Part shown: positions 903-24,177 of the stretch, piece after piece
Numbering within the stretch: position 1 is the stretch's first letter
Layout of the letters: each line of letters begins with the position of its first letter
Assembly (NCBI GenBank): GCA_023250715.1
Contig: JAHFAF010000010.1
Span: 1 to 41,494, forward strand
DNA from: Pseudobdellovibrionaceae bacterium
GTDB lineage: Bacteria > Bdellovibrionota > FAC87 > UBA2466
DNA length: 41,494 nt
Direction: 5' to 3'
The notes under the pieces: model-generated
What the model was told of the DNA's origin: nothing
Seen by the model: the letters and a program-made list of their open reading frames with translations, nothing else
Databases searched by the model: none
Program-made: the position numbers and the translations under genes

Positions 903-1035
903 GCGGTATACCCCATCCTCGCAAGGAGGAAAATCCGGCGGCCATCCTGCTCCCCCAACTCCTGGAGAAACCGCTGGTTCCCATTTTTGGGCCGCCTGCG
1001 CCTTATCTCCCTTTCTCCGAAAAACATCCCTTCTC

Positions 1036-6829: not shown

Positions 6830-7714
6830 TTGAATACATCCCCCAGCAAAATGCTACTTATTGCGGGCCCCTGTGTGATCGAGGACGAAGGGCTCACCCT
6901 AGAAATAGCTGCGGAATTGAAGCGCCAATTGCAGGATCTTCCGGTCGACTTTTACTTTAAAGCGTCCTTCGACAAAGCAAACCGATCCTCTATCGAAGGT
7001 TTTCGCGGGCCCGGACTGACTGGGGGGCTAAGGACGCTGACTAAAGTCAGGTCCACCCTCGATCTGAAGGTCCTCACCGATGTGCACGAAACCCATCAAG
7101 TCGTTCCCGTTGCTGAGGTGGTCGACTTTCTTCAGATTCCCGCGTTCCTCTGTCGGCAAACCGACTTGATTTTGGAAACGGCACGGGCTGCTTTGCGAAT
7201 GAAACGCCGCTTGAATATCAAGAAAGGACAGTTTCTCGCGCCATGGGATACTAAAAACATCATTCAGAAGGTGGGCGATGTAGTGGTGAAGGAGAAGGCC
7301 CTCCCACCAAAGGATTGGTTTTGTCTCACTGAGCGCGGAGTCTCTTTTGGTTACAACACGTTGGTAGTAGATATGACGACCTTTCAAACCATTCACGGAT
7401 TTGGCGTGCCTGTTGTTTTCGACGCCACCCATTCCGTTCAGGCGCCGGGGGCCGGCCCCGGCGGAATGAGCACGGGAGGAAAACGGGAGAACATTGAAGT
7501 CCTTGCCCGCGCCGCAATTGCCTCCGGCGCGGATGGTATTTTCATGGAGTGCCACCCGAACCCCGCGATCGCAAAAAGCGATGGCCCCAATGCCTTCTAT
7601 CTCGACAAGATCAAGCCGTTCATCGAGCAATTGCTACAGATCCGCGCCACTGTTTCGTCCCTTCCCAAGCTACTGCCCGAAGCGCTATTAACGGAGAAGC
7701 GCCAAGGGAACTAG
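6830..7714 (+). CDS. kdsA: 3-deoxy-8-phosphooctulonate (Kdo-8-P) synthase, metal-dependent class
   Basis: FKASFDKANRSS, LTDVHE, LQIPAFLCRQTDL, IKKGQFLAPWD, LTERGVSFGYNTLVVDM, FDATHSVQ, FMECHPNP. IAGPCVIEDE has Cys where non-metallo enzymes such as E. coli have Asn, as in the Aquifex-type metalloenzyme. TTG start at 6830 preceded by GGAGA. Confidence 0.95.
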   Translation: MNTSPSKMLLIAGPCVIEDEGLTLEIAAELKRQLQDLPVDFYFKASFDKANRSSIEGFRGPGLTGGLRTLTKVRSTLDLKVLTDVHETHQVVPVAEVVDFLQIPAFLCRQTDLILETARAALRMKRRLNIKKGQFLAPWDTKNIIQKVGDVVVKEKALPPKDWFCLTERGVSFGYNTLVVDMTTFQTIHGFGVPVVFDATHSVQAPGAGPGGMSTGGKRENIEVLARAAIASGADGIFMECHPNPAIAKSDGPNAFYLDKIKPFIEQLLQIRATVSSLPKLLPEALLTEKRQGN

Positions 7715-7797: not shown

Positions 7798-10086
7798 TCA
7801 GTTTAAGCTCAAGGCGCCCCGGGACATGCGAATAACGGCGTTCAAGGAAGCCCCTGCCTCAGCCTGATTGGATTTATTCGCAACCCGTCGCAGGTGAACT
7901 CCAAAGATCTCTCCCTTCCATTGAAACTCGTCCCAGCTCCGATTTTCACTAATCCAAACCATGTTTTGAGCGGGTATTCCCAAAACAGAAGGGACGAAGG
8001 ATCGAAGAAAACGGGGAAACTGCGCTAGTGTTTCATCATAGGACGCCTTCTTACTTCCGCCCTGAACGAACTGAAGTATTTCGCATTTGGATTCTTTCGA
8101 AAATCGCCGATAAATTCGATATCCTGTATCCCTCGCTTTAATTCTAAGCAGCGAAGCAAGAACATTCACCCATACATAAAGAGCTCGACGAGCCACGAGT
8201 TTTCGATGAAGCCAACGGATGAGCTCTCTCCCCCTGAAAGAGCGGTCGAGCTCCGGCGTAAAATCCAGATCCGCCTTCACGACTTTTGCCAAGTCAACGA
8301 GCATACAATGCACGGAAGGAAATCTCTGGTACTTTGACACATTCAGAGGATCCCAACCCGATCCAAAAAAAGCCAAGCCCTTCTCACGCACATGAGCGAG
8401 GAGCTCGGATGCCCATTGAGGACGAAGAATGAAAAAATCCGGATCCAGAACTAGTAGAAACCGGCTTTGGATCTCCTTCATCCCTCTCATGAGACCCGCC
8501 CCATGATGATAACTTCCTGCATCGTATGGGTTAGGCGTCGCAGCCACACCTGAAATCACTTTAATTTCCCCGTTCGATTCCTCGGCCAAGCTTTCCAATT
8601 TTTCTAGTGGGACCCCGTCATTGTTCACGATCACCCACCGCGGACGGCAGGTATTCAATTCCCCAGTGAGGGAGATATTCTTAAGTAACAGGTCTTCCGA
8701 CTTGTATGCGACGGTCAAGATCGTAAGCCTCGTCAGACTCTCTATCGCATCGGCCGCATGACGGCCCGCCGGCATTTCCTTTCCAAGAGGTCGGGTAAAA
8801 GCCAGGGAGAAAGAATTGCGATACGCCTCCAGCGGGTCCTCTCCTTGAATGCAAATCTCCTCGAGTTGAGTGACCGCTTCTGCAATGCCCTTGGAAAGGT
8901 AAAGCGTTCTTGCGGTTACTAGCTCCTGGAAATGTTGGGCCTGCGTCTGGGTTATTCCAAATTCCGGGAGAACCAAGGAGAGACAAGGTTTTCCTATGAC
9001 GATGGCGTCTATCATCCCGGTTGTATTAAGCCCAACGGTGGCTTCGCTATGGCTAACACTTTGATAAAAATCGAGCAGAGACTCATCGGTATCGGGCAAT
9101 GCTCCCGCCGGTGGCCAGATTCGAAACTCAGAGCTCGCCTCCCGCTCGTATGCCGCGAAATTAGAGGGATGAGGGCGAGCCAATATTTGAGTTTCCTGTA
9201 TTTTACGGTGGGAACTCTCCTTGAGCGCCTTGGCCAGTGCTCGAACTACCCACACCTCGTTTTCGGAAATACTCGGCGCCGAGCCGAGATAAAGTAGAAA
9301 GGGTTTTTCCGGATCTAGCCCCACTTTCTTGCAGAACTCGACGCGGTCGGTGCGCGAATCGTCCACCGTCCACCATTTGTCGAAGAAAGGAGAACCTGTG
9401 ATCCGAATACGATTCGGATTAATCTTATGAATGGAAACCGCTTGCTCGAAATGAATTTTATTCCAAACCAATAAGAGATCGGGCTCGACGTGAAAAAGCC
9501 CTTTCGTCGTTAGATTATCCCAGGAAAGGGTGGCCACCACCGTGGGAATCCTCAACCGCTTCGCCGCCTTTATGTATTCCGTCTCCAGCGAATAGACCAT
9601 GTTCACCGGAGAGCCCACAACGAGATCGGGCCGCTCCTCACAAAGATACCTCAGAACGTTCGGATTACAGGGGCCAACGCGCTCGATCAAGCGGAAAATT
9701 TCGTCCATCCATTCCAGAGCCAAAACATTCTTCACGAACGGGAACTTAACGAAGCGCTTTAGAATGTTTGAAAGATACCCTTCCCAACGATCTCGGTAAT
9801 AGCTCGACTGATCCTTTCTCCTCAGATAGCTGGCGAATGTACGCAGCTCCCGTATTTTGGCAAGCCAGTGAATCGAAGATTCCTCTGGCCGCACTACCTG
9901 CCTCTCTACGGAAAGTTTCCCCGGAAATCGATCCAATAGAGGATTTAATCCAGGGTAGCCGACAATTTTTTCAGTGGAAGAGCAAACGATCACTTTGACG
10001 GAGTGCCCCCTCTCGCAAAGGTGCTCGATGGTGGAGCTATGGTAGGAGAAATTCCTTACCGACTTTATGACAAAAAGCACGCCCAT
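7798..10086 (-). CDS. Two-domain glycosyltransferase: N-terminal GT-B-like module (SWDNLTTKG / RPHP motifs) fused to a C-terminal GT2-like module
   Basis: 762-aa ORF. The N-terminal ~330 aa are colinear with the partial gene at 1..902. The C-terminal part has a GT-A/GT2 signature: LTILTVAYKSEDLL, WVIVNNDG, LVLDPDFFILRP (DxD). Last gene of the 20166..7798 operon, 4 nt after the cytidylyltransferase gene. Confidence 0.7.
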   Translation of the reverse strand: MGVLFVIKSVRNFSYHSSTIEHLCERGHSVKVIVCSSTEKIVGYPGLNPLLDRFPGKLSVERQVVRPEESSIHWLAKIRELRTFASYLRRKDQSSYYRDRWEGYLSNILKRFVKFPFVKNVLALEWMDEIFRLIERVGPCNPNVLRYLCEERPDLVVGSPVNMVYSLETEYIKAAKRLRIPTVVATLSWDNLTTKGLFHVEPDLLLVWNKIHFEQAVSIHKINPNRIRITGSPFFDKWWTVDDSRTDRVEFCKKVGLDPEKPFLLYLGSAPSISENEVWVVRALAKALKESSHRKIQETQILARPHPSNFAAYEREASSEFRIWPPAGALPDTDESLLDFYQSVSHSEATVGLNTTGMIDAIVIGKPCLSLVLPEFGITQTQAQHFQELVTARTLYLSKGIAEAVTQLEEICIQGEDPLEAYRNSFSLAFTRPLGKEMPAGRHAADAIESLTRLTILTVAYKSEDLLLKNISLTGELNTCRPRWVIVNNDGVPLEKLESLAEESNGEIKVISGVAATPNPYDAGSYHHGAGLMRGMKEIQSRFLLVLDPDFFILRPQWASELLAHVREKGLAFFGSGWDPLNVSKYQRFPSVHCMLVDLAKVVKADLDFTPELDRSFRGRELIRWLHRKLVARRALYVWVNVLASLLRIKARDTGYRIYRRFSKESKCEILQFVQGGSKKASYDETLAQFPRFLRSFVPSVLGIPAQNMVWISENRSWDEFQWKGEIFGVHLRRVANKSNQAEAGASLNAVIRMSRGALSLN

Positions 10087-10090
10087 TGCG

Positions 10091-10810
10091 CTAAGCTCTC
10101 GCCATTAGCGTTTCCGCTAGGAAAAAATCTAATGGAGTATTGATGTCGACTGATTCTTCATCTGACATCTCAAAGGCGAAAACCGTTTTCCCGATCGTCG
10201 ACCGGTACCTGCTCAAAACCCTGGGCCTGGTAATGTAGATGGAAGCGTTTTGAATAAAAACGGGCTCGAGCTGATGATAGGCCAAGGTGTGAGATTGAGA
10301 GTCCCGCTTCTGCACATAAGGCTCGGCAAACTCTCCCTTCACCTTCCACATCTTGTAAGGGTGCTCGGAACACTTTCGAATCGATCGTAAGGAATCCACC
10401 CTGGGCGCAGCCAGCATCTTCTTTACCGCCCTATCGATGGTAGAAGCTTTTCTGAAAGGGGTCGTGGGATAAAGATTCACGACGAGATCCGGAACATACC
10501 CCTCGTTTTCACTCAACCAGCCCAATGCGTGTTGGTGAAATTCTAGCTCCGTCGATCCCGAGCCCGCAAGACCCCTCGGACGAAGAAAAGGGACTTCTGC
10601 CCCATACTTTCGCGCAATCGCGGCAATTTTTTCCGAATCAGTCGAGACAATAACGCGATCTACTAGCTTTGCCTTCAAGGCAGCTTCTATGGTGTAGACG
10701 ATAAGGGGCTTCCCGCCGAGAGAGCGGATATTCTTATTCTTCACCCGTTTTGATCCCGAGCGGGCGGGAATGAGGGCCAGAACTTTCGGCTTATCAGCCT
10801 TCCTTCCCAT
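10091..10810 (-). CDS. Acylneuraminate cytidylyltransferase family (NeuA/PseF/LegF-type CMP-nonulosonate synthetase)
   Basis: VLALIPARSGSKRVKNKNIRSLGGKPLIVYTIEAA, VIVSTDSEKIAAIARKYGAEVPFLRP. Length 239 aa. Overlaps the transketolase gene by 17 nt. Confidence 0.85.
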   Translation of the reverse strand: MGRKADKPKVLALIPARSGSKRVKNKNIRSLGGKPLIVYTIEAALKAKLVDRVIVSTDSEKIAAIARKYGAEVPFLRPRGLAGSGSTELEFHQHALGWLSENEGYVPDLVVNLYPTTPFRKASTIDRAVKKMLAAPRVDSLRSIRKCSEHPYKMWKVKGEFAEPYVQKRDSQSHTLAYHQLEPVFIQNASIYITRPRVLSRYRSTIGKTVFAFEMSDEESVDINTPLDFFLAETLMARA

Positions 10811-12749
10811 TTACCTTTTCCAACACTCGTATGCTAAGTGTCTCTCCATCCAATCGATGTGCTCTCAATGCCTCCCAAGGAGTTCCGCATACGGGGAACC
10901 CCTCCACGCCAAATTTCGTAAAGGTGAGCTTTCCGATAAGTCCCTCACGGTTCATAAAGCTAAAGAGATGATCTCCCAAGCCCCCGAACGGCGAATGATC
11001 CTCGAGCACGAAGAAATTCTCGCAATGGGCCAGCGTTTCCCTGAGCCATTCTTTATCGAAACGATTGAGCCAAGGCAGATTGACCACCTTCAGTGTTACA
11101 CCCTTCGCCTTCAGCAACTCAGCGGCTGTAAGCGCCTCATTCAGCATCACCGGGCCATAGGCAAAGAGAACATTTTCTCTTCCTTCGCTCAACGCGAACC
11201 CACGCCCCACTTCGAGCCGGTAGTTCTTGGGCAAATCGATAATACGCGGAGAGGGACCGATATTCAGCCGAACCATGCAGGACTCTTTCGCGTCGAGCAC
11301 CATGTAACGGGTGATGAGTCTCGCTTCCGCCCCAGAGGAAGGTTGCAGAATCGTCACATTCGGAAACGCCCCAAAGAGAGAAATATCCCGAGCTGATTGA
11401 TGGGATTTTCCAGGCCCCGCCGGAATCACGCCTGCAAAATGGCAGGCAAAGATGATTTTTCTATTTTCGGAAAGGGCGTTGTAAATCTGTTCGTTCCCCC
11501 TAGCCGCCAAGAAGTTCGCGAAGGAATTGCAAATCGGCAAAAGTCCCTGAAGAGCAAGACCGCTCGCCATTGAGACCATATCCTGCTCGGCAATTCCCAT
11601 CTCGATAAAGCGCTTCGGGTAGGTATCTTCGAATTCACGAATGCGACAGTCCAAAGAGAGGTCCGCATCCAAAAGGACGAAGTCTTCCTTTTCTTTCGCA
11701 AGCTCTACCAGTGCCTTGCCATAAGAGTCCGCGACAAACTCGCTCGTGTTCTTACTCACCGCGAGCGCACTCGACGGTTTTTTCTCCGGGAGCGCCTCGA
11801 CCCTTTGAGGCTCCGCGATCTTTAATCGCGTAAAATCCGAACAAATCCCATTCCAAAGCTCGTCATAAGCACGCACGTAGGAGGCATCGTCCGGCGCCCC
11901 CGCATGCCACCGGTAGTAGCCATTATTCTCCTCGAGTGCTACCGGGTGCTCCATGAAGGAGACGCCACGACCTTTGATCGTATCGCAAATCAAAAACTTT
12001 GGTTTATCCTGAACAGCGTTCAGTTTTGCGAAACACTCCTCAAGTCTTAGGTAATCATGTCCGTCACAACGTTCCACATGCCAGCCGAAGGAGGAGAGTT
12101 TTTTCGGCAAATCACCTAAAGAAACAATGCGATCGATGTAACGATCGGACTGCAGTTTATTGTGGTCCATGACGACGATAAAATCGTGCCGCTTTTGTTG
12201 CACCGTCGACTGCAAGGCCTCAAAGTTTTCACCTTCTTGCCACTCGCCGTCGCCGGTCATGACGACAACCTTTCCTTGCCAGCCCTGATAGCGCTTTGCG
12301 AACGCCATCCCGCGCGCCTTCGAGATTCCCATCCCCAATGAACCCGTATTTGCCTCTATTCCCGGAATTTTAACGTCCGGGTGCCCATCTAATCCGCCGA
12401 GCCGACGCAGGGCCAGAAACTTTTCCTCAGGCACAATTCCCATCGAGTAAAGAGCGGCATACTGCCCAGGTACATCATGACCCTTCGACGAAAAATAGAT
12501 ATCGCGATCCGGGTTCTCGATGCCCGCATGCCTCAAGTTCAAATGGCGGTAATAGAGGAAAATTACGATGTCCATCGCACTGAAACTCGAACCCAAATGC
12601 CCAGAACCCGCCCGCTTCACCTCGAAAAGGGTGTTCATGCGACACATCTTCGCGATTAAAGGCAATGTCTCTTTCCAATCGAGTCCCGCTTTTGAAACGC
12701 GATCAAATTCCGACTTCGGGATGAATTTCATTTCCATGCTCTTCCTCAA
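10794..12749 (-). CDS. Transketolase-family ThDP enzyme with fused N- and C-terminal 'split transketolase' halves
   Basis: GSGHLGSSFSAMDIVIFLYY, SSKGHDVPGQYA, ThDP/Mg motif VVVMTGDGEWQEGENFEAL. Pyrimidine-binding half: FIEMGIAEQDMVSMASGLALQG. C-terminal domain: VRLNIGPSP...LKVVNLPWL. Confidence 0.85.
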   Translation of the reverse strand: MRKSMEMKFIPKSEFDRVSKAGLDWKETLPLIAKMCRMNTLFEVKRAGSGHLGSSFSAMDIVIFLYYRHLNLRHAGIENPDRDIYFSSKGHDVPGQYAALYSMGIVPEEKFLALRRLGGLDGHPDVKIPGIEANTGSLGMGISKARGMAFAKRYQGWQGKVVVMTGDGEWQEGENFEALQSTVQQKRHDFIVVMDHNKLQSDRYIDRIVSLGDLPKKLSSFGWHVERCDGHDYLRLEECFAKLNAVQDKPKFLICDTIKGRGVSFMEHPVALEENNGYYRWHAGAPDDASYVRAYDELWNGICSDFTRLKIAEPQRVEALPEKKPSSALAVSKNTSEFVADSYGKALVELAKEKEDFVLLDADLSLDCRIREFEDTYPKRFIEMGIAEQDMVSMASGLALQGLLPICNSFANFLAARGNEQIYNALSENRKIIFACHFAGVIPAGPGKSHQSARDISLFGAFPNVTILQPSSGAEARLITRYMVLDAKESCMVRLNIGPSPRIIDLPKNYRLEVGRGFALSEGRENVLFAYGPVMLNEALTAAELLKAKGVTLKVVNLPWLNRFDKEWLRETLAHCENFFVLEDHSPFGGLGDHLFSFMNREGLIGKLTFTKFGVEGFPVCGTPWEALRAHRLDGETLSIRVLEKVNGKEG

Positions 12750-14212
12750 ACTCCTTTGGGGTCCACGTTGTGATAAACGACCTTCAAATTGGAATAGACA
12801 TCCAGCGCCTCCGGCCCGGGCTCACGCCCGCCATTTCCGGAATTCTTTACGCCACCGAAGGGCATGTGTGGCTCGCTCCCATGAGTACCGGCGTTGATAC
12901 TAACAACTCCCGACTGAACTCGACGGGCAAATTCATAAGCACGGTGGTAATTTTTCGTGTGAATTGCGGCCGTCAGCCCATACTCGCTTTCATTCGCCAG
13001 CTTCACCGCGTGATCAAAATCACGAACCCGGTAGAGACAAGTAATGGGCCCGAAAAGCTCATTTCTGGAAATCTCATCGCCAGGCTGCGCCTCTTCGATC
13101 AAAGTGGGGCTTATGTAATAACCATTTCGGTGCTTCTCATCCGTTAGACGAGTGCCTCCGACGAGAACCTTGGCCCCTGCTGCTTTCGCCTGTTCTATCG
13201 AAGCAAGCATATTCGCGAGCTGCTTTTGGTTAATCACCGGCCCATAATCGTCTTCATCGGCCGGTCCTACCTTTAAAGAAGCAATCTTTTCCAATAGCTG
13301 TGTTTTGAACTTTTCGTAAACGGAATCGAAAACCAGCAACCGACTCGAAGCGGCGCACCGTTGACCGGCATTGCTGAATGAAGAGAGTAGCGCCCACTTT
13401 ACGGCGTTATCCAAATCGGCATCCTCACAAACCACGAGCGCATTCTTCCCACCGAGCTCCAAGCAGACTTTTGCGAGCCTCTCCCCGGCAGCTTTTGCTA
13501 TTTGCCTGCCGACGTTGGTCGAACCCGTGAAGCTAATGAGCTGCACTCTAGGATGCGCGACGAGCGGCGCCCCCACTTCATTCCCAAATCCATGGAGAAT
13601 CGTAAGTACTCCAGGCGGGAGCGCCGACTCGGAAATGACTTTTCCCATGATCCATGCAGTGAGTGGAGTATCCTCGGACGCCTTCAAAATGGCGGCATTC
13701 CCGCAGATGATTGCAGGGAAAACCTTCCAAGCTACATTTGCGACCGGAGTATTAGCCGCAATGATGAGACCGCAAACCCCAACAGGCTCTCGCACCACCA
13801 CTGGATATCGATTCGCTACTCCGCTCACCGTGGTACGCCCGAAAAACCTTTGCCCTTCACCCGCCATAAAGAAGGCTTGAGAAATCGCGGCCCCTGTTTC
13901 TCCGAGAGCATCTTTCAGGGACTTCCCCGTCTCTAATGCCACAATCTGTGCAATTTCTTTTTGGCGAACCTGCATCCTTTGCGCGATATCGAATAAAACC
14001 TCTCCTCGCTTTACTCCCGGAGTAGCGGCCCACAAGGACTGAGCCCGCTCCGCAACCTCTACCGCGCGATCCACATCCTCTTTTCCAGAACGAGCCAATT
14101 CGCAAATCTGCTCGCCATTATGGGGATTCAACTTGGGTATGTACGCTCTCGAATGGGGCGCCACATCCTCATTCCCGATAAAATTCAAAACTCTCGTTAC
14201 CACGCGGTCCAC
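12746..14212 (-). CDS. NAD(P)+-dependent aldehyde dehydrogenase
   Basis: FTGSTNVGRQI, catalytic-Glu motif CLELGGKNALVV, catalytic-Cys motif SNAGQRCAASSRLLV, ELFGPI, PFGGVKNSGNGRE-like tail. GTG start at 14212, with alternative in-frame starts slightly downstream. 4-nt overlap with the transketolase gene. Confidence 0.9.
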   Translation of the reverse strand: MDRVVTRVLNFIGNEDVAPHSRAYIPKLNPHNGEQICELARSGKEDVDRAVEVAERAQSLWAATPGVKRGEVLFDIAQRMQVRQKEIAQIVALETGKSLKDALGETGAAISQAFFMAGEGQRFFGRTTVSGVANRYPVVVREPVGVCGLIIAANTPVANVAWKVFPAIICGNAAILKASEDTPLTAWIMGKVISESALPPGVLTILHGFGNEVGAPLVAHPRVQLISFTGSTNVGRQIAKAAGERLAKVCLELGGKNALVVCEDADLDNAVKWALLSSFSNAGQRCAASSRLLVFDSVYEKFKTQLLEKIASLKVGPADEDDYGPVINQKQLANMLASIEQAKAAGAKVLVGGTRLTDEKHRNGYYISPTLIEEAQPGDEISRNELFGPITCLYRVRDFDHAVKLANESEYGLTAAIHTKNYHRAYEFARRVQSGVVSINAGTHGSEPHMPFGGVKNSGNGGREPGPEALDVYSNLKVVYHNVDPKGV

Positions 14213-15024
14213 CCTCCATCGACTACTAGGTTAGATCCGGTCATATACGACGAGGCATTCGATGCGAGAAATACAACAGCACCATTCATCTCGTGAGATT
14301 CCGCCATCCGCCCGACGGGAATGCGCTTCGTATACTCCTCCAAAAATTCTTTATCCTGACTAACGTAGATTCCGGCCGGCGTAAGCGTATTCACCCGAAC
14401 CCCCTTTTTCGCCCAATAGGTAGAAAGGTAACGCGTGAGATTCAAGACGGCCGACTTCGTCGTCGCATAAGCGGCGGGTTTGTACCACTCCTGCCCCGCA
14501 CGGCGCTTGTATTCGTAAATATCTTGATTCGGAGAAACTAGCCCGTACGTAGAAGCGATATTGATGATACTTCCCCGACCCGCCACTGCCATCGCTCCAC
14601 CAAAAACCTGGCAGGCAATCCAAGTTCCCTTCACGTTGACCGCAAGCACGCGATCCAAGGATTTTTCTGGGTACGTCTCAAACGGCCCATTTTCTTCCGC
14701 CGGGGCATCAGGCGGCGAATCGATAGCGGCATTGTTGATGAGAATCTCAGGAACCCCCCACATCTGCTGAATCTCCGCTAAGCAGCGCTCTAAGTCTTCG
14801 CGTTGGGTAATATCCGTACGAAATAAACGAATTTGGCCGGATGCCGTCAAGGTTTCCCACCGTTCAGGAAAAGGGCCTTTCTGCACTGAAAGGAGATCAA
14901 TCGCGGCAACTCGGGCGCCATACGAGGCGAGTGCGGCACAAAACTGTTTACCCAATAATCCAGCACCGCCTGTGACTACCGCTACTTTGTCCCGCAATGA
15001 AAAGAGATCGTCCATTGGCCTCAA
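14197..15024 (-). CDS. Short-chain dehydrogenase/reductase, PtmA (flagellin-modification protein A)-like
   Basis: VAVVTGGAGLLGKQF (TGxxxGxG), NNAA, an insertion before the catalytic YATTKSAV (YxxxK), and GSNLVVDGGWTAW at the C-terminus. Confidence 0.85.
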   Translation of the reverse strand: MRPMDDLFSLRDKVAVVTGGAGLLGKQFCAALASYGARVAAIDLLSVQKGPFPERWETLTASGQIRLFRTDITQREDLERCLAEIQQMWGVPEILINNAAIDSPPDAPAEENGPFETYPEKSLDRVLAVNVKGTWIACQVFGGAMAVAGRGSIINIASTYGLVSPNQDIYEYKRRAGQEWYKPAAYATTKSAVLNLTRYLSTYWAKKGVRVNTLTPAGIYVSQDKEFLEEYTKRIPVGRMAESHEMNGAVVFLASNASSYMTGSNLVVDGGWTAW

Positions 15025-16145
15025 GCATTGGGCTGAGGCGCCCGTCCCGCGGACGGTTTCGGCGACAGACCCGCTAATACCCCTTCTTGGACCTGACTTA
15101 ATGCTTCCAGGCTGATGGGCTCGTCCTCGAGGATAGTTTTCTGAACCGTGGTTCCCAAAAGGCTATCTAATGTGTAAGGCGGCAACCCATCGCCAGGCGA
15201 CTTCAGGCAAAGATCCTCGCGCTGTAATGTTTGGCCCGCGAAAAGATCCCTTGCCGCCACGACCTTCTTTCCCATCTTAATGAGCGGCTCGCGCTCACTG
15301 GGATGTTGCTTCTTCCCCGGGTTACCGAGTGCTTCACGCGTGCGCTGTAAATCACGCACCATTTTTCGCAGACCCGTTGGCTCTAAGGAAAACGCGTGGT
15401 CGGTGCCTTTCCAGGCCCGGTTCAAAGTAAAATGTTTTTCGACGACTCGAGCCCCCAACACGAAGGCCGCCACCGCCATGGCAATTCCATTGTCATGCGA
15501 GGAAAGGCCAATGACGATATCGGGGAACGCCGCTCGGAAAGTAGTAACCACGTTCAAGTCCAATTCGTCGAACTTGGCCGGATAGCCAGCCGTACATTGC
15601 AAAATCGTAAGCTGTGTATTGATCGGCATGATGGCGTCATAGGCACGCTGAACATCTTCCATATCTCCGCCGCCAGTGCTAACCACCATGGGCTTTCCAA
15701 GCCGCGCCACGTGCTTCAAGAGGGGAACATTCTTTAGATCTCCGGACGCAATCTTATAGGCCGGAATATCTAGCTTCGCCAAGAAGTCAGCACTCTTGAA
15801 ATCAAACGCGGTCGAAAAAAAAGTGATGCCCAATTGCTTCGCGTACTCTTTCAGCTCCACATGTTGTTCCCAACCGAATTCCAATGCTTCTCGATGAGCC
15901 CCATAAGTTGCGCCGTACGCGTTCTCGCTATTGTAGGGTTTGTTGTACATCGCCCTCGTGAAGAGGGTGACGTTATCGCGCTTTTGTAATTTCACCGCGT
16001 TCGCGCCACATTCCTTGGCCGCTTGAAATAATTTTTTGCAGGTCTCCACGTTACCTTGGTGATTGTGTCCGATTTCGGCAATCACATAGCAATCGGTGGA
16101 ATCGCTGATAAGCCGGCCATCGATGGTCAATTGTCGAATTGTCAT
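15021..16145 (-). CDS. NeuB-family PEP-condensing ulosonic-acid synthase (NeuB/PseI/LegI type) with C-terminal SAF domain
   Basis: CYVIAEIGHNHQGNVETCKKLFQAAKECGANAVKLQKR, KIASGDL, GLSSHD, EKHFTL, and a SAF-like VVAARDLFAGQTLQREDLCLKSPGDG. The track ORF begins at GTG 16160. ATG at 16145 preceded by GAGGAG seems the better start. Confidence 0.85.
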   Translation of the reverse strand: MTIRQLTIDGRLISDSTDCYVIAEIGHNHQGNVETCKKLFQAAKECGANAVKLQKRDNVTLFTRAMYNKPYNSENAYGATYGAHREALEFGWEQHVELKEYAKQLGITFFSTAFDFKSADFLAKLDIPAYKIASGDLKNVPLLKHVARLGKPMVVSTGGGDMEDVQRAYDAIMPINTQLTILQCTAGYPAKFDELDLNVVTTFRAAFPDIVIGLSSHDNGIAMAVAAFVLGARVVEKHFTLNRAWKGTDHAFSLEPTGLRKMVRDLQRTREALGNPGKKQHPSEREPLIKMGKKVVAARDLFAGQTLQREDLCLKSPGDGLPPYTLDSLLGTTVQKTILEDEPISLEALSQVQEGVLAGLSPKPSAGRAPQPNA

Positions 16146-16232
16146 AATCTCCTCACCCACAAAAGCTCTAACCCCTGGTTAAGGTTGGCAGGCTAGTCTA
16201 AGGAGGTTTTGAAGACAAGCGGGGAATTCCCA

Positions 16233-16979
16233 CTATAATGCATTGCGCATTCTCTCTCGGACCACCTCGAGATCCTCCGGCGTATCCACCCCAACGGACA
16301 CGGAATCGACTTTGGCCAGTCCGATAGAAATCCCATTTTCCAGAGCCCTTAGCTGCTCCAGACACTCCCCCACCTCCAAGGGTGAAAGGGGGAGGGATCG
16401 GATTTTGAAAAGGGTGGACCTTCTGTAGACATAGAGGCCCAGGTGCCGGTAGCAAGAGAAGGGACCAGATGCAGGTTGCCGGCTGTAGGGAATGGGGAAA
16501 CGGGAAAAATAAAGAGCTCTTCCCTCTTTATCCGCCAGGGCCTTCACCACCGAACGGTTCTCAAGCTCGGAGTTAGAAAGGAGGGGGGTCATGGCCGAGG
16601 CCATTTCAAAGTGGCCCTGAGTGACTAACGACAAAGCGGCCTCGATCGTGTGCGACTCCATTAAGGGCTCATCCCCTTGAACGTTGACATAGACATCAGC
16701 GTCCGTTTGATCCGCGACGGCCGCCACTCTATCCGTGCCACTAAGCAAAGATTCCGGGGTCATCATCGCTTCGCCACCGAAGCTTTTCACCGATTCGAAA
16801 ATTTGAGTGTTATCGGTCGCAACGATTACCCGATCAACGCCTTTAGCGCCGCAGACGCTTTGATAAACCCACTGAATCATCGGCTTTCCACAAATATCGG
16901 CCAGGGGTTTTCCCGGTAGACGCGTAGACCGGAATCGAGCGGGAATGACCGCGATGATTCGAGACTTATCAGTCTTCAT
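16233..16979 (-). CDS. kdsB: 3-deoxy-manno-octulosonate cytidylyltransferase (CMP-Kdo synthetase family)
   Basis: MKTDKSRIIAVIPARFRSTRLPGKPLADICGKPMIQWVY, VIVATDN, YVNVQGDEPL. The track ORF (to 17159) has a 60-aa low-quality N-terminal extension that overlaps the upstream gene. ATG at 16979 gives the canonical ~249 aa. Confidence 0.85.
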   Translation of the reverse strand: MKTDKSRIIAVIPARFRSTRLPGKPLADICGKPMIQWVYQSVCGAKGVDRVIVATDNTQIFESVKSFGGEAMMTPESLLSGTDRVAAVADQTDADVYVNVQGDEPLMESHTIEAALSLVTQGHFEMASAMTPLLSNSELENRSVVKALADKEGRALYFSRFPIPYSRQPASGPFSCYRHLGLYVYRRSTLFKIRSLPLSPLEVGECLEQLRALENGISIGLAKVDSVSVGVDTPEDLEVVRERMRNAL

Positions 16980-18063
16980 TCCGATGACCCTTGAGGGGAG
17001 ATCCAATGAGATGGCGGTACTCGCTAGGCATAAGCTGGTTCTGATTTCGAAGCGAAAGCAATGCCCGCTTGATAAGACGGCCAGCGAGGCGAAGTGAGGA
17101 CGCCGGAGACTTCTCTTTCTTATCCACGAACCGGGAATTGAGATCCGTGTAGGGGCCATTTAGGACAACAATTCTTTGAAGCTCGAAATAATGAGAGAGG
17201 ATTTCGCTCACCAAAGAGAGTTGCGCGTTATGGCCCGAGCGATCGCGGTTATGACTATAAAGTTTCGTGACCCCTCCCTCCCAAAGTTTTCTTGCGTATC
17301 CCTCTACCTGGCCCGTCGTCATCTCCTGGAAGGAGACCATATTTATCGCAAGATCCAGGGGCACATCCCAGATCTCCTGAAAACTTTCCTGAGGGACAAA
17401 GACGAAGTCATAAGCGCTGGTAGTTTCGCGGAACTCCTTCACCGCATCCTTACCATCCACGAAAAGGACTCTACTGTCAGGGAACGCAGTCATGAGATAC
17501 ACGGCGGAAAAAAGAAAGACTTCGGGAAAGTCCACGATCACGTAGGTCATGTTCGGTACATGCTGCTTCAACTGGTAGGGGAATCCACCCCAGCCCGCTC
17601 CGATTTCACACACGACCGGCTTTTTCTTCTGCCCGCGCAGAGCACTCAACACCTGGCCCTTATCCAAAGCGATTAAGGACTCGTAAAATTTCAAAGTATC
17701 TAAATTCACCAGCTGGCCGTCGAGATTGTGGCCAAATCCCCCTAGAATAGGTGACTCGGGAACGAAGAGATTGTTCGAATCAGCTTTCCGCAGCTCCTTC
17801 AACTTTTGCTTGAACTCCTCTTTTCGCTTTACCTGTGAACTTCGATAATCATAGGTTTTTAGACCGGTAAGATGAAACGTGTGCTGGCGAAGCTTCTGAA
17901 TGAGAAGAGGGGATGCCTCAAGCAGGTAATCGAATCCCGCCAGCTCCTCTCGCCAGTAATCACTGGGCAATGTACAAGAGGGCATATTGTTATGTTTACT
18001 TATTATTTCAAGTACATGATTGCGAACTCGTTGATAGTTCTCCGCTCCGTTTGTCATTGTCAT
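16969..18063 (-). CDS. Putative SAM-dependent (sugar O-) methyltransferase
   Basis: VCEIGAGWGGFPYQLKQHVPNMTYVIVDFPEVF is a glycine-rich motif I followed by an acidic residue at the end of beta-2. 364 aa with a helical N-terminal extension. The family call is tentative. Confidence 0.55.
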   Translation of the reverse strand: MTMTNGAENYQRVRNHVLEIISKHNNMPSCTLPSDYWREELAGFDYLLEASPLLIQKLRQHTFHLTGLKTYDYRSSQVKRKEEFKQKLKELRKADSNNLFVPESPILGGFGHNLDGQLVNLDTLKFYESLIALDKGQVLSALRGQKKKPVVCEIGAGWGGFPYQLKQHVPNMTYVIVDFPEVFLFSAVYLMTAFPDSRVLFVDGKDAVKEFRETTSAYDFVFVPQESFQEIWDVPLDLAINMVSFQEMTTGQVEGYARKLWEGGVTKLYSHNRDRSGHNAQLSLVSEILSHYFELQRIVVLNGPYTDLNSRFVDKKEKSPASSLRLAGRLIKRALLSLRNQNQLMPSEYRHLIGSPLKGHRNED

Positions 18064-18070
18064 TAAGCCC

Positions 18071-19045
18071 CTAAATATCCCAGGATTTCAAATCGGCAGC
18101 TCTAGTAAGATTTAAGGGACTTCTCTTTTCCTCAAGCAAATTCACAAGGCCCGCCCAGCTCCCAAATTTTGCCACTGCTTCAGCGCCCCGCTCACCCAAG
18201 GTTTGAAGGGGGAGAACGGAAAGATCCAAGCTCTGCAATTTTCCGATATCGAGAATGTTTTCCGCGTGGCGAAGCCATTTCGGGGAATAGGCATCTAAAT
18301 TCGTAATTATCGGACATCCCCTCTCCATCGCGGCAAGAACGCTTGTATTATTCGAGCGAACGCCCTTTTCGAAGAACGCGATCATTGCATCTGCTTTTCC
18401 GAGAAAATAATTTACAGATTCATCGGAGAGAAAACCAAGAAAGCGCACACGCCTACCATAAATCCCGACTAACGCCTTACTGACCGCATTGAAGTCCCCG
18501 AAGTTCGCTTTTTCATGAAAAGCGGTGGAAATCCAAAGTGTATAATCGGCGCCCACTCTCTCCAAAGCCGTTTTCAATGTCTCGTGCATCCATGGCTGAA
18601 TCTTATGGGCCATGCCGAAAGAGAATAGGTTGAGAGGGCTCTCGAACTTCGCCGTTTCTTGATCCAGGAGCCCGGGGCACCAGCCCAAGAGAAGAGGCTT
18701 ACCCGTAATCAAGAGTTTTTCCCTCACCTCTTCGTTGCCGCAAACGATTCGCCGGGCGCGGGAAATGAAATCAGCTTCCAAGGGTAATTCATCATAGGTG
18801 TGAAAAAAGAGATCGTAGACTGCCTTGCTCGAATGCAATCGAAGAAGTAACTGATTCGCCGCTACCATATCCTCAGGCAAGAGGTCCTTCAATTTCACCG
18901 AAACAAGGATTGGCTTTGCCATCAAAAGAGCGGGAGCATGGAAGCCAGTACAAGGCACTCCCATTCGCCGCGCTAAAATGTGATTGAACTTGGCGACCCC
19001 TGAAAGCACAGGGTTGGTATGCGATGAAATTATCTGCTCGTACAC
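18071..19045 (-). CDS. GT-B (GT4-like) glycosyltransferase candidate
   Basis: C-terminal half LGFLSDESVNYFLGKADAMIAFFEKGVRSNNTSVLAAMERGCPIITN resembles the GT4 donor-binding motif. The track start is TTG 19087. GTG at 19045 overlaps the upstream TAG by one base (TAGTG) and gives MYEQIISSH... Confidence 0.5.
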   Translation of the reverse strand: MYEQIISSHTNPVLSGVAKFNHILARRMGVPCTGFHAPALLMAKPILVSVKLKDLLPEDMVAANQLLLRLHSSKAVYDLFFHTYDELPLEADFISRARRIVCGNEEVREKLLITGKPLLLGWCPGLLDQETAKFESPLNLFSFGMAHKIQPWMHETLKTALERVGADYTLWISTAFHEKANFGDFNAVSKALVGIYGRRVRFLGFLSDESVNYFLGKADAMIAFFEKGVRSNNTSVLAAMERGCPIITNLDAYSPKWLRHAENILDIGKLQSLDLSVLPLQTLGERGAEAVAKFGSWAGLVNLLEEKRSPLNLTRAADLKSWDI

Positions 19046-20166
19046 TAGACCTTCTCGTAAACAAGGACTCGGCCGTACCGCTTCCAATCCAACCGCTCTT
19101 CGAGGTCAGGCCGACGTTTCATCCCCTCTAGTACAAAGAGCGTGCGCAAGAAATCCTTGTTGAGCACCGTAATATGCGATGGATCTGTTTTCTTGTCGTC
19201 CGTTACGTCGAGAAGCGATTGAGGGCTCGGGTGAAAGCGCGTGGTAATGTATGCGAAACGGGATGTAAGCTTTGCAATATTGGCGACAGTCTGGCGAATC
19301 TGCACCACAGTCAAATGCTCCAGAAGCTCTCGGCAAACTACAAGATCGAAATTGATTCCGAAATCATGGTAATCCGTCACAGACCCAACATGTATCCGGT
19401 CACGAATTTCCGGCGGGGAAACTTTTTTTGCCCCTTCAGAGAAGTCGATTCCATGCACTTCGACTCCAAGTTCGTGCAGGAGGTACATGAGAGCACCCGG
19501 ACCGCAACCCAGATCCAGGACATGTTTAGGCTCGAAAACCGCCTTAATATTCTCTGGATTTTTCCCCTCGATCTTTCGGCGGGTTTCCACCGAATAATCA
19601 TTTCCGCCCTCTCGCCAGCCGTCGTGGAAATAGCCTACGTCGTAGTGCTTATCCTCCACGGCCTTTTGAGCCAACACTAGGTTTTCAAACTGTTCTAAAT
19701 TCATGCGATCCCCTTCTTGAGCGATCCCTTGAAAGTATTTTTGGCTCAATCGCGTCGAGCTATCAAAAATGGTTTCGAGAAAAACTACTTCAATCCCCCG
19801 CGTGGCACATACCGCCTTTTCCCGCTCCGGCAATCCGCGATCCCGCCAATCCGCCCCCTTCACATAATATTTAGGGGAAAGCCTCTCGAGAACGTCCGCT
19901 GTGGTGGTTTTGCAGACGTGAACGTAGTCCACGGTACGAAGTGAGTCAATGAGATAAGCCCTTTGGTTTTCAGGCAAAACTGGCGGTCTGAGCTTGGCTT
20001 GTTCGAGATAATGGTCCCCCTGGACATTACAAAACACGGAAACCCCGAGCTTTTTTGCCTCCTCAAAATACTTCAAATGTCCAATATGCAGAGGATCAAA
20101 CCCTCCATCAACCATGGCGATATTTTGGCCCCGGTACCTTTCCAAGTTTTCCGTGGATACCATCAT
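19045..20166 (-). CDS. Fusion protein: TagD/RfaE-II-type (HxGH) cytidylyl/nucleotidyltransferase domain + class I SAM methyltransferase domain
   Basis: N-terminal IAMVDGGFDPLHIGHLKYFEEAKKLG (HxGH nucleotidyltransferase motif). C-terminal VLDLGCGPGALMYLLHELGVEVHGIDFS and FDLVVCRELLEHL (methyltransferase motifs I and II). First gene of the operon. Confidence 0.75.
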   Translation of the reverse strand: MMVSTENLERYRGQNIAMVDGGFDPLHIGHLKYFEEAKKLGVSVFCNVQGDHYLEQAKLRPPVLPENQRAYLIDSLRTVDYVHVCKTTTADVLERLSPKYYVKGADWRDRGLPEREKAVCATRGIEVVFLETIFDSSTRLSQKYFQGIAQEGDRMNLEQFENLVLAQKAVEDKHYDVGYFHDGWREGGNDYSVETRRKIEGKNPENIKAVFEPKHVLDLGCGPGALMYLLHELGVEVHGIDFSEGAKKVSPPEIRDRIHVGSVTDYHDFGINFDLVVCRELLEHLTVVQIRQTVANIAKLTSRFAYITTRFHPSPQSLLDVTDDKKTDPSHITVLNKDFLRTLFVLEGMKRRPDLEERLDWKRYGRVLVYEKV

Positions 20167-22317: not shown

Positions 22318-23100
22318 TCAGACTTCCGCGGGAGGTAGAATAGTCTTGGAAGCCCGAGTACCTAAAGGGTGCGAGTGGTAGTCTCCGCGAGAGAGCCATT
22401 TTTCGATCAAACAATAGAGAACAATGAACAGATAGCGAGATCCCATCTCCTTTATTTTGAGCTTAGATTGGCCTGCCTTTCGGTTGATCCAATCGTTGGG
22501 AAGGACCGTGTAAGAATACCCTCGAACGATCGCTTTTAGGGGCAACTCGACGGTTAAATTGAAATGATGACTGAGGAAAGGCTTGAGTCCATCGATCGCT
22601 CGGCGATGGTAGAGCTTGAAAGCGTTCGTCGTGTCATTGTAGCCCAGCCCGAAAAGAATCTGAATGAAGAGATTAGCGAGGCGATTCAAAAAGAGCTTGG
22701 GCCAGGGATAATCCACCACCTTAGCTCCGGCTATGAAACGAGATCCGAAAACGCAATCAACGTTTTCTCGTTCCATCGCCCGGAAAAAACGAATCAGATC
22801 CTCTGGGCGATCGGACGCATCGGCCATGTAAACGGCCACGGCGTCTCCGCCATAGCTTTCCAAACCCTGTCGAACAGCGAAACCAAAACCGTGAGGAGGA
22901 GAATTATTCACGAGTCGGACCGACGGGAAACGGCGGCCGAGATCTTCAAGAATCCTTTCAGTGGCATCGATCGAGTTATCATTCACAACGAGAATCTCAT
23001 AATGGATCTGGTTCGCGCTCAGATGCTCGGCGAGAGCAGTTACCGTGCTCGCAATAGCACCCTCTTCATTGTGGGCGGGAATGACGACGGAAAGAATCAT
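22318..23100 (-). CDS. GT2 glycosyltransferase, polyprenyl-phosphate sugar synthase type (Dpm1-like)
   Basis: [44 protein letters not shown], and a hydrophobic C-terminal segment [18 protein letters not shown] overlap with the upstream epimerase gene. Confidence 0.8.
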
Positions 23101-24164: not shown

Positions 24165-24177
24165 GGATTCTCCTCAC

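Follow-up and report, generated by a model that had tools for sequence, protein, structure and literature searches.

What does a ten-gene operon make that combines sugar-condensing and CMP-activating enzymes with a short-chain oxidoreductase (SDR), an aldehyde dehydrogenase (ALDH), and a transketolase? We analyzed this operon within a stretch of 41,494 nucleotides from a Pseudobdellovibrionaceae bacterium, referred to below as the window. Positions 7798 to 20166 contain exactly ten minus-strand open reading frames (ORFs), each of at least 230 aa; the ORF listing and a re-check of the junctions reproduced the originally predicted run from 20166 to 7798 with its overlaps, and Pfam and NCBIfam profile searches reproduced nearly all of the predicted domains. 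These genes and their relevant neighbors are as follows.

20299..21366, plus strand: KdsD/KpsF arabinose-5-phosphate isomerase (TIGR00393 kpsF), divergent from the operon start
19045..20166, minus strand: g1, fusion of an HxGH (HIGH) nucleotidyltransferase and a class I SAM methyltransferase (Pfam); first gene of the operon
18071..19045, minus strand: g2, GT4-like transferase (GT-B C-terminal type; Glyco_trans_1_4, homologues), functional partner of g1
16969..18063, minus strand: g3, NanM-type putative sugar O-methyltransferase (TIGR04371)
16233..16979, minus strand: KdsB, CMP-Kdo synthetase (NF003952, TIGR00466)
15021..16145, minus strand: NeuB-family synthase, NANS (phospho-sugar) type (Pfam NeuB and SAF); start of the cassette
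14197..15024, minus strand: classical SDR of the cassette (adh_short/adh_short_C2)
12746..14212, minus strand: ALDH of the cassette (Aldedh, 510 bits)
10794..12749, minus strand: single-chain transketolase-family enzyme (TK) with a remodeled substrate site (Transketolase_N, Pyr, and C domains)
10091..10810, minus strand: NeuA/PseF-like CMP-ulosonate synthetase of the cassette (CTP_transf_3)
7798..10086, minus strand: 762-aa two-domain protein (residues 1-460, GT-B fold; C-terminal part possibly GT2-like)
6830..7714, plus strand: KdsA, Kdo-8-phosphate synthase (NF003543, TIGR01362), convergent with the operon end
1..1106, minus strand: partial second copy of the GT-B domain family of the 762-aa protein, exiting the window edge (family HMM)

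One transcription unit, three modules

The ten genes form a single tightly packed transcription unit for surface glycan building. The GTG start of g2 at 19045 overlaps the TAG stop of g1 (TAGTG), g2 and g3 are separated by 7 nt, and g3 overlaps KdsB (248 aa from the ATG at 16979) by 11 nt. The spacing between KdsB and NeuB is 72 nt if the latter starts at GTG 16160 and 87 nt if it starts at ATG 16145; of the two starts, the ATG is preceded by the better Shine-Dalgarno sequence, and the public gene call P0001 also begins there. The following junctions overlap by 4 nt (NeuB/SDR, 15021-15024), 16 nt (SDR/ALDH, 14197-14212), 4 nt (ALDH/TK, 12746-12749), and 17 nt (TK/NeuA, 10794-10810), and a gap of 4 nt (10087-10090) precedes the gene for the 762-aa protein. 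The operon is nevertheless not one ten-step pathway to one sugar, as the original prediction had it, but three modules: KdsB, which belongs to a Kdo route; the independent g1/g2 pair; and a five-gene cassette, NeuB-SDR-ALDH-TK-NeuA (10091-16145), which is the novelty of this locus. Nor do the two CMP-activating enzymes lie side by side, as four genes separate KdsB from NeuA.

KdsB scores 284.6 bits against NF003952 (cutoff, 193) and 191.7 bits against TIGR00466 (cutoff, 155.2). Two genes that the original prediction overlooked adjoin the operon on the opposite strand: KdsA (NF003543, 359.1 bits with a cutoff of 242; TIGR01362, 331 bits with a cutoff of 314) and, across an intergenic region of 132 nt, KdsD/KpsF (TIGR00393, 289.3 bits with a cutoff of 203.7; SIS and CBS domains). 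These flanking genes, both above their curated NCBIfam cutoffs, explain the presence of KdsB in the operon, and the three enzymes are predicted to supply CMP-Kdo via the standard route. Compared to the canonical pathway (KdsD, KdsA, KdsC, KdsB), the window lacks KdsC, and this pathway accounts for only 1 of the 10 operon genes. Homologues of KdsA, KdsB, and KdsD were not detectable in 80 NeuB-anchored genome loci.

The g1 protein matches CTP_transf_like (HIGH motif) and Methyltransf_25/23/11 in Pfam; its top NCBIfam match is RfaE domain II (79 bits, below the cutoff), and its nearest PDB relatives are generic cytidylyl/adenylyltransferases. The only match for g2 is a sub-threshold one to Glyco_trans_1_4 (E 0.0016), and a homologue with 47% identity carries the NCBI name GT4. 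Many g2 homologues are about 500 aa long and also have PF01467, the same domain type as the g1 N terminus; g1-type and g2-type proteins are frequently fused together in other genomes, and in Thermosulfuriphilus the two genes are adjacent, with no NeuB in the displayed flanks of roughly 10 kb each. This pair is separate from the NeuB cassette and would be a self-contained “activate and transfer” unit for some other phosphorylated building block, adjoined by g3. The latter (TIGR04371, 93.1 bits with a cutoff of 44) accompanies the NeuB clade only in loci L069 and L070. Since g1 and g2 form a separate pair that is also found without NeuB, the methyltransferases offer no specific evidence for methylation of the ulosonic acid itself, which was originally predicted.

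The five-gene cassette and its enzymes

A scan of 185,579 species genomes yielded 559 confirmed stretches encoding a relative of the operon's NeuB. Among the 45 kept loci that have 8 kb or more on each side, 24 contain all five cassette genes and 33 contain NeuB, ALDH, TK, and NeuA; the gene order NeuB-SDR-ALDH-NeuA-TK is kept in 31 of 35 loci. The cassette recurs in metagenome-assembled genomes and isolates labeled with more than 10 phyla, including Pseudomonadota, Desulfobacterota, Chloroflexota, Acidobacteriota, Gemmatimonadota, Actinomycetota, Myxococcota, and Cyanobacteria/Vampirovibrionia, and isolates with related loci include Magnetospirillum fulvum DSM 13234, Tistlia consotensis, and Rhodocista pekingensis. 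In nine Chloroflexi-type cassettes (NeuB-ALDH-NeuA-TK), the SDR was not found within 10 kb, TK is missing from four loci, and a few loci, e.g., L035, L057, and L070, have NeuB without TK or ALDH. No paper was found in the literature that describes this cassette or links a transketolase to such a pathway, and it is apparently unstudied.

In the NeuB-family synthase, the His residues that bind metal and the Lys that binds PEP are retained, and its scores lie below the NCBIfam equivalog cutoffs of the NeuB, PseI, and LegI types. It is 40% identical to human NANS, with one single-residue gap, and differs from Neisseria meningitidis NeuB by E134D, N184A, and R314S; E134D and the missing R314 are reported signatures of eukaryotic NanS (PMC8208679). 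Of 83 related loci, 34 encode a HAD phosphatase of the KdsC/KDN9P-phosphatase family close to NeuB, mostly at 250 bp or less, and no KdsC-type phosphatase is found in this window. The NANS-type signatures and the phosphatase neighbor point to a phosphorylated aldose as the putative substrate.

The TK (top NCBIfam score, 368.6 bits; cutoff, 488) has invariant ThDP/cofactor and catalytic residues. In all 37 relatives, however, R318 is absent, S345 is replaced by D, D424 by P, and R474 by I, S, or T; these residues are intact in a canonical split transketolase, the nearest relative with a solved structure. We take the replaced residues to bind the phosphate and the C4-OH, partly on the basis of structural literature on the yeast and human enzymes; these contacts are lost in all 37 family members, so that an ordinary pentose-phosphate role is unlikely. 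In human transketolase, all four form part of the lining of the X5P-ThDP site (PMC8016368).

The SDR keeps its Ser-Tyr-Lys triad in 51 of 52 relatives, and the ALDH keeps its catalytic Cys, Glu, and Asn in every complete ORF among relatives. The best NCBIfam neighbors are gluconate 5-dehydrogenase, D-mannonate oxidoreductase, and KduD for the SDR and alpha-ketoglutaric semialdehyde and 2,5-dioxovalerate dehydrogenases for the ALDH, all of them below-cutoff matches typical of broad superfamilies, which counts against the model given below. Gluconate 5-dehydrogenase and KduD oxidize the penultimate carbon of sugar acids, and the neighbors of the ALDH oxidize a 2-keto-3-deoxy aldehyde acid; we regard both as weaker pointers. 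The NeuA-like enzyme (PseF, 150.8 bits with a cutoff of 205.7) has a conserved P-loop, PAR-GSK...KN. Where CMP-sialate synthetases have the motif D-I-D, this enzyme and 38 of 44 relatives have D-I-N; this Asn replaces a metal-binding Asp of CMP-sialate synthetases and KdsB, which also counts against the model.

The 762-aa protein has no Pfam match. Its residues 1-460 are modeled by AlphaFold2 as a GT-B fold (pLDDT 93.4, pTM 0.92), for which the Foldseek matches are all generic GT-B proteins (MshA and UDP-GlcNAc 2-epimerases, for example; TM ~0.5), and its C-terminal part shows a weak GT2 match (E 0.019). Members of this family, often two or three per locus, occur in 12 loci of the NeuB clade, and an HMM built from the family detects the partial copy at the window edge (342.7 bits, E 5e-105). 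This protein is a candidate for the enzyme that transfers the cassette sugar.

Proposed pathway and its alternatives

The cassette bears out the view that a NulO/Kdn-type route is represented in the operon by its condensation and activation end, accompanied by an unusual set of SDR, ALDH, and transketolase. The Neu5Ac, pseudaminic acid, and legionaminic acid pathways share NeuB-family condensation with PEP and CMP activation, but their precursor enzymes (NeuC, PseB/C/H/G, and LegB/C/H/G) are, as predicted, absent from the operon, whose synthase and CMP-transferase fall below the NeuB, PseI, and PseF equivalog cutoffs. The sole nearby aminotransferase (4827-6017) is a WecE-type dTDP-4-amino-4,6-dideoxygalactose transaminase, not PseC/LegC. 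The Kdn/animal-type sialic acid route consists of a Kdn-9-P or Neu5Ac-9-P synthase (NANS), a HAD phosphatase, and a CMP-synthetase (e.g., Bacteroides thetaiotaomicron BT1714/BT1713). The cassette resembles it in the eukaryote-type synthase (E134D, R314 lost), the KdsC/KDN9P-type phosphatase near the synthase in many relatives, the CTP_transf_3 activating enzyme, and the lack of UDP-HexNAc dehydratase, aminotransferase, and acetyltransferase steps; it differs in the embedded SDR, ALDH, and TK, in the absence of the phosphatase from the window, and in having D-I-N instead of D-I-D.

In the model that we favor, the synthase would join PEP and a common hexose 6-phosphate into a Kdn-type nonulosonate 9-phosphate, with mannose 6-phosphate as the most economical candidate, given that the cassette is not accompanied by precursor enzymes. 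A KdsC-type phosphatase would take off the phosphate, the SDR would oxidize the penultimate hydroxyl (C8) to leave a HOCH2-CO- ketol tail, the remodeled TK would cut off the two-carbon ketol unit, and the ALDH would irreversibly oxidize the resulting C7 aldehyde to a carboxylate. The pathway would end in a 3-deoxy-2-heptulosaric, Dha-like dicarboxylic sugar (C7H10O8), CMP-activated by the NeuA-like enzyme before or after tailoring. There are two further weaker pointers. By our own stereochemical derivation, 8-keto-Kdn would have the 3S,4R configuration needed by transketolase donors. The same logic of dehydrogenase, transketolase, and semialdehyde dehydrogenase has been proposed for the route from 5-keto-D-gluconate via tartaric semialdehyde to tartrate (PMC7970118; PMC12016104), with a penultimate-carbon dehydrogenase, C2-ketol removal, and an ALDH; that route, however, is free-acid metabolism with a housekeeping or engineered transketolase, whereas here a dedicated remodeled paralogue is embedded in a CMP-sugar cassette. 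The four TK-less loci and the missing phosphatase gene count against the model, and the nine cassettes without a nearby SDR imply that the oxidation enzyme is encoded elsewhere or that the SDR has another role. No cultured-strain glycan structure or experiment was found that fixes the substrate, step order, or product.

Synthase, phosphatase, and CMP-transferase alone make up a complete known Kdn/NANS-type route, and a few loci do without TK or ALDH, so the cassette might make CMP-Kdn or another ordinary nonulosonate, with TK, ALDH, and SDR as helpers in precursor supply or pentose-phosphate balancing. We consider this unlikely: the canonical sugar-phosphate contacts are lost in every TK relative, mannose 6-phosphate requires no dedicated supply, and in 31 of 35 loci NeuA is flanked by ALDH and TK, which favors a single pathway. 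Glycolyl and glyceroyl substituents of NulOs are known, transketolase chemistry gives C2 glycolaldehyde units, and ALDHs turn such aldehydes into acids; it is nonetheless improbable that the three enzymes build a small hydroxy-acid substituent (glycolyl, glyceroyl, or tartronyl) on the ulosonic acid or glycan, as the conserved core has no acyl-activating enzyme, carrier protein, or acyltransferase, and the cassette has no amino-sugar steps to give an N-acylation site. The tartrate-like enzyme logic and the gluconate 5-dehydrogenase similarity of the SDR would also fit a scheme in which a hexose or sugar acid is shortened to an aldehyde-acid of four carbons (e.g., tartaric semialdehyde, or threuronate) before NeuB adds PEP, likewise giving a heptulosaric acid; this order is very improbable, as the ALDH would consume the aldehyde required by NeuB and the NANS-type signatures and adjacent phosphatase point to a phosphorylated aldose. 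Least probable is a linear pathway in which all ten genes serve one methylated and doubly CMP-handled ulosonic acid, a reading that translational coupling in one operon would suit, because KdsB with the flanking KdsA and KdsD completes a standard Kdo branch, g1/g2 and g3 are also found apart from the cassette, and the Kdo genes are not found with it in any other NeuB-clade loci compared.

The product of the favored model would be isomeric with Dha, a C7 2-keto-3-deoxy dicarboxylic sugar whose biosynthesis and activated form are still listed as unknown (PMC12168206). It is probably not Dha itself, because NeuB-type condensation sets C4 opposite to that of Kdo and Dha; by our derivation, the configuration of a product made from Kdn would be L-arabino rather than D-lyxo. 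Three modules with this cassette mechanism, the mechanism being inferred, are the best explanation as a whole, and we hold it with moderate confidence. The cassette is quite likely to make some non-canonical CMP-activated ulosonic acid, which we tentatively suggest may be a transketolase-shortened ulosaric acid.

Operon layout and the Kdo genes

Ten ORFs of 230 aa or more, and no others of that size, are listed on the minus strand between 7798 and 20166, as the original prediction had it, and all of its junctions were reproduced when the start codons were re-read. In order of transcription, the genes are g1 (a nucleotidyltransferase-methyltransferase fusion), g2 (GT4-like), g3 (an O-methyltransferase), KdsB, NeuB, SDR, an aldehyde dehydrogenase (ALDH), a transketolase-family enzyme (TK), NeuA, and a 762-aa protein. 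They are joined as follows:

19045, minus strand: g1/g2 junction, TAGTG
16969-16979, minus strand: g3/KdsB junction, 11-nt overlap
15021-15024, minus strand: NeuB/SDR junction, 4-nt overlap
14197-14212, minus strand: SDR/ALDH junction, 16-nt overlap
12746-12749, minus strand: ALDH/TK junction, 4-nt overlap
10794-10810, minus strand: TK/NeuA junction, 17-nt overlap
10087-10090, minus strand: junction of NeuA with the gene for the 762-aa protein, 4-nt gap

The widest gap, between KdsB and NeuB, measures 72 nt if NeuB starts at GTG 16160 and 87 nt if it starts at ATG 16145; the latter start is better supported and agrees with the public gene call P0001. In simple scans for promoters and terminators, such sites were rarer than in shuffled sequence, a result that says nothing either way. 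Most of the gene labels proposed earlier were confirmed by Pfam and NCBIfam, while those of g2 and the 762-aa protein stand on weaker evidence.

KdsB scores above the curated cutoffs of both NF003952 (284.6 bits; cutoff, 193) and TIGR00466 (191.7 bits; cutoff, 155.2). Two further genes of the same pathway, overlooked in the original prediction, flank the operon:

6830-7714, plus strand: KdsA (Kdo8P synthase), 359.1 bits, cutoff 242
20299-21366, plus strand: KpsF/KdsD (A5P isomerase), 289.3 bits, cutoff 203.7

KdsA, KdsD, and KdsB together account for the standard CMP-Kdo route except for KdsC. A tblastn search of the window with 21 KdsC-type HADs returned nothing below E = 0.19, and the KdsC gene may be located elsewhere in the genome. 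The operon thus encodes two CMP-transferases because they serve two different sugars, and the idea of two CMP-activating enzymes in a single pathway is not supported. With the window proteins as tblastn queries, no homologues of KdsB, KdsA, or KdsD were found in any of the NeuB-anchored loci. The operon architecture and the Kdo branch are ordinary; the interesting part is the widespread cassette NeuB-SDR-ALDH-TK-NeuA (positions 10091 to 16145).

An FAD amine-oxidase-family protein located beside sugar genes (25479-26930, minus strand) matches the NCBIfam PRK07208 “hypothetical protein” equivalog with 547 bits and shows a weak UDP-galactopyranose-mutase-like signal. In a 1,214-aa protein (37102-40746, minus strand), the sole Pfam signal is the DUF5122 beta-propeller repeat; this protein, which adjoins a GT2 gene (34687-36324), may be a large surface protein.

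Genes g1 to g3 and the 762-aa protein

Pfam and NCBIfam searches identify g1 as a fusion of an HxGH (HIGH) nucleotidyltransferase with a methyltransferase and g3 as a NanM-type sugar O-methyltransferase; g2 shows only a subthreshold match to the GT1 family. In many homologues of g2, a single polypeptide of about 500 aa also includes an HxGH nucleotidyltransferase (PF01467) domain, a Rosetta-stone fusion with the N-terminal domain type of g1. The entries behind this pair are as follows:

18071-20166, minus strand: g1/g2 pair; public protein calls P0249, P0253, P0256, and P0262 and compared genome loci L087 and L088 for the pair or its fusion

An unfused g1-g2 pair is found in a Thermosulfuriphilus polysaccharide locus that lacks any NeuB, and the fused version in a heptose-type locus. 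The occurrence of the pair or fusion in loci without NeuB rules out g1/g2 as a part of the cassette and thus makes it an independent “activate and transfer” module. The methyltransferase of this module provides no specific evidence for the methylated ulosonic acid envisaged in the original prediction. In tblastn searches, g1, g2, g3, and the family of the 762-aa protein were seen in only a minority of the NeuB-anchored loci.

The 762-aa protein has no Pfam match, and no match to Epimerase_2 was found anywhere in the operon. Its residues 1 to 460 yield a confident AlphaFold2 model (pLDDT, 93.4) with a generic GT-B fold, and its C-terminal part shows a weak GT2 match (E = 0.019). In Foldseek searches, the GT-B domain has no close solved relative, with a TM score of ~0.5 to MshA and UDP-GlcNAc 2-epimerases; at the fold level, it matches 2-epimerases and glycosyltransferases about equally, with 10 to 16% identity. 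Close kinship with a known sialyl- or Kdo-transferase was rejected, as the Foldseek matches were of the generic GT-B kind only. The presence of several family copies per locus favors a transferase over a NeuC-type 2-epimerase. This GT-B family, for which there is no Pfam model, is represented by two or three copies in related loci (L006 and L070), and some of its members show faint TagF-like (PF04464) or Epimerase_2 (PF02350) matches. A partial second copy is encoded at positions 1-1106 of the window (minus strand) and crosses its left edge.

Distribution and enzymes of the cassette

The NeuB encoded in the window has thousands of relatives at ~65 to 75% identity. In three public contigs, NeuB is found beside SDR, ALDH, transketolase, and CTP_transf_3 genes, accompanied in two of the three by a Hydrolase_3 phosphatase. 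A scan of genomes from 185,579 species, one genome per species, found NeuB relatives encoded in 559 confirmed stretches, and 80 loci were fetched for comparison. When these were searched with the window proteins by tblastn, SDR, ALDH, TK, and NeuA were seen to travel with NeuB. Completeness was counted in the 45 loci that extend 8 kb or more to each side: all five genes are present in 24 of them; another nine, Chloroflexi-type loci, lack just the SDR; and the transketolase is missing from four. The gene order NeuB-SDR-ALDH-NeuA-TK is seen in 31 of the 35 complete cases. The host genomes are labelled with more than 10 phyla and include such isolates as Magnetospirillum fulvum DSM 13234, Tistlia consotensis USBA 355, and Rhodocista pekingensis; the closest relatives of the window's cassette come from MAGs labelled Pseudomonadota.

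Some of these loci have unusual surroundings. In those of the Desulfobacterota type (L005, L017, L020, and L047), a fatty-acyl-AMP ligase, an NAD-dependent reductase/epimerase, and an 8-amino-7-oxononanoate-synthase-like enzyme are encoded ~1 to 6 kb upstream of NeuB, along with an MsbA-like ABC transporter in L005, L017, and L020 but not in L047 and an acyl carrier protein in L005, which suggests attachment of the sugar to an unusual amino-lipid anchor. An Anaerolineales MAG (L013) carries two NeuB-NeuA systems ~7 kb apart (2629-6545 and 10001-15378), one of them the ALDH/TK cassette and the other a different NulO-type set. A full cassette was also found on a contig labelled as a Bifidobacterium breve MAG (L040, CALQBJ020000024.1); it may reflect a binning error, because the relatives of the cassette otherwise come from environmental bacteria of other phyla.

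The synthase contains the NeuB and SAF domains of Pfam and scores below the cutoffs of TIGR03569 (NeuB; 301.9 versus 399.65 bits) and PseI (257.1 versus 340.25 bits). It shares 40% identity with human NANS across 339 residues, with one single-residue gap, which serves as a lead, not proof. Aligned with Neisseria meningitidis NeuB, it keeps the histidines that bind the metal and the lysines that bind PEP; E134 is replaced by Asp, N184 by Ala, and R314 by Ser. The Asp (D136) is invariant throughout the clade, and of the 32 clade sequences aligned, 90% or more have the Ser (S316). R314 of NeuB contacts the N-acetyl group, and a large phylogeny lists E134D and the loss of R314, both seen here, as two signatures of the eukaryotic 9-phosphate synthase NanS (PMC8208679). 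A small type-C0 HAD, matched best among solved structures by KdsC and KDN-9-P phosphatases, is encoded near NeuB in 34 of the 83 related loci, usually within 250 bp. Taken together, E134D, the loss of R314, the likeness to NANS, and the neighboring HAD point to a phosphorylated aldose as the probable substrate and a 9-phosphate as the probable product. The single pointer to activity on Man-6-P or ManNAc-6-P is this identity to human NANS.

The transketolase combines the N, Pyr, and C domains in one chain and scores 368.6 bits against NF004559 (cutoff, 488). In an alignment of human transketolase, whose numbering is used here, with 37 members of the family, none of the 37 deviates at the ThDP-binding, Mg2+-binding, and catalytic residues (H37, H77, R100/101, H110, D155, N185, H258, E366, and His at 428). 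By contrast, the residues R318, S345, D424, and R474, which in human transketolase surround the site of xylulose-5-phosphate-ThDP (PMC8016368), are lost in every one of them: R318 falls into a gap, S345 is replaced by Asp, D424 by Pro, and R474 by Ile, Ser, or Thr. H416 is replaced by Tyr, Leu, or Phe in the MAFFT alignment, where its placement is ambiguous. The four positions still read R, S, D, and R in the canonical split transketolase of Carboxydothermus (6yaj), the nearest relative with a solved structure. The family thus has the cofactor and catalytic residues of a canonical transketolase (EC 2.2.1.1) without its sugar-phosphate and C4-OH contacts, which argues for a dedicated paralogue with a putatively rebuilt pocket and against a housekeeping enzyme.

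The ALDH keeps its catalytic Cys, Glu, and Asn, and the SDR, of the classical type, its Ser-Tyr-Lys. The nearest curated families are gluconate 5-dehydrogenase and KduD for the SDR and the alpha-ketoglutaric semialdehyde and 2,5-dioxovalerate dehydrogenases for the ALDH; all of these are weak evidence, as every score is below the cutoff. The CTP_transf_3 enzyme is nearest to PseF (150.8 bits; cutoff, 205.7). This NeuA-like enzyme conserves the N-terminal PAR-GSK...KN nucleotide loop. At the metal motif, it has D-I-N, as do 38 of the 44 relatives, as opposed to the D-I-D of the three CMP-Neu5Ac synthetases that could be aligned as far as this motif (1eyr, 6ifd, and 1qwj). The position of Q104 in the N. 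meningitidis CMP-Neu5Ac synthetase is occupied by Arg in 37 of the 44 cassette relatives and by Tyr in the window; speculatively, a basic residue at this position might pair with a second carboxylate of the sugar.

Predicted product and its relation to known pathways

The cassette probably makes a non-canonical CMP-activated ulosonic acid. It falls outside the Neu5Ac, Pse, and Leg pathways, as it lacks their defining enzymes and does not reach their HMM cutoffs. The following neighboring genes were considered for a Pse or Leg route:

4827-6017: DegT, WecE-type dTDP-4-amino-4,6-dideoxygalactose transaminase (412.9 bits, cutoff 375), not PseC/LegC
23097-25260: two epimerase/dehydratases, far below the LegB and RmlB models

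Such a route was rejected, the DegT being of the WecE type and both dehydratases falling far short of the LegB and PseB models, and the absence of Neu, Pse, and Leg precursor enzymes noted in the original prediction therefore appears to be real. Action of the transketolase as a 2-keto-acid decarboxylase on the ulosonate was dismissed as well, because CMP activation requires an intact 2-keto acid.

An ALDH in a CMP-ulosonate cassette would have to make a carboxylate that persists in the product. To unmask an aldehyde on the sugar chain, the natural choice would be a transketolase, which requires an HOCH2-CO- ketol, and an SDR oxidizing the penultimate carbon would make that ketol. By our own derivation, oxidation of a Kdn-type C9 sugar at C8 would give a ketol with 3S,4R neighboring centers, as transketolase donors require; transketolase cleavage would then leave a C7 aldehyde on the pyranose, to be converted to a carboxylate by the ALDH. 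The far end of such a substrate would be a carboxylated or CMP-linked ring in place of a phosphate, and the position read by D424 would be the ring oxygen, both of which would fit the residues lost from the transketolase. A sequence of dehydrogenase, transketolase, and semialdehyde dehydrogenase has been proposed for the conversion of 5-keto-D-gluconate to tartrate (PMC7970118, PMC12016104), and the proposed tailoring would work alike, behind a front end like that of the Kdn/NANS route. On these grounds, we tentatively suggest a specific tail-shortened ulosaric acid as the product. Against this model are the absence of SDR from the Chloroflexi-type cassettes, of TK from a few loci, and of the phosphatase from the window, as well as the unusual D-I-N metal motif of the CMP-transferase.

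The predicted product is isomeric with Dha, a C7 2-keto-3-deoxy dicarboxylic sugar, and is probably a different sugar, with C4 set opposite. Dha itself was rejected because, by our derivation, its stereochemistry does not fit: NeuB-type condensation gives C4 the configuration opposite to that found in Kdo and Dha, and at C6, too, the opposite configuration is required of a transketolase donor. The biosynthesis of Dha and its activated form are still listed as unknown in reviews (PMC12168206). No paper linking a transketolase to a ulosonic-acid, NeuB, or sialic-synthase pathway was found in the open-access literature, a scope that leaves such absence unproven, and no structure was found for a glycan of an isolate with the cassette. 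It is possible, if doubtful, that this is the first route to a nucleotide-activated ulosaric sugar, in which a TK paralogue devoid of the sugar-phosphate site cuts two carbons off a Kdn-type tail and the ALDH caps it, and that its product is a widespread, overlooked surface component of environmental bacteria labelled with more than 10 phyla and the route a template for finding the Dha pathway.

Among the key determinants of the bacterial surface are ulosonic acids (such as Kdo and the sialic, pseudaminic, and legionaminic acids), whose pathways are used for genome-based prediction of glycan structures. The cassette, conserved in hundreds of species-level genomes, is a branch that current annotation does not resolve, and its presence in M. 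fulvum, T. consotensis, and R. pekingensis places it in cultured, testable organisms. If the tail-shortening model is true, the bacterial repertoire would gain a new class of sugars, transketolase-family enzymes would gain a role in glycan tailoring, and there would be an enzymatic precedent for dicarboxylic keto-deoxy sugars such as Dha.
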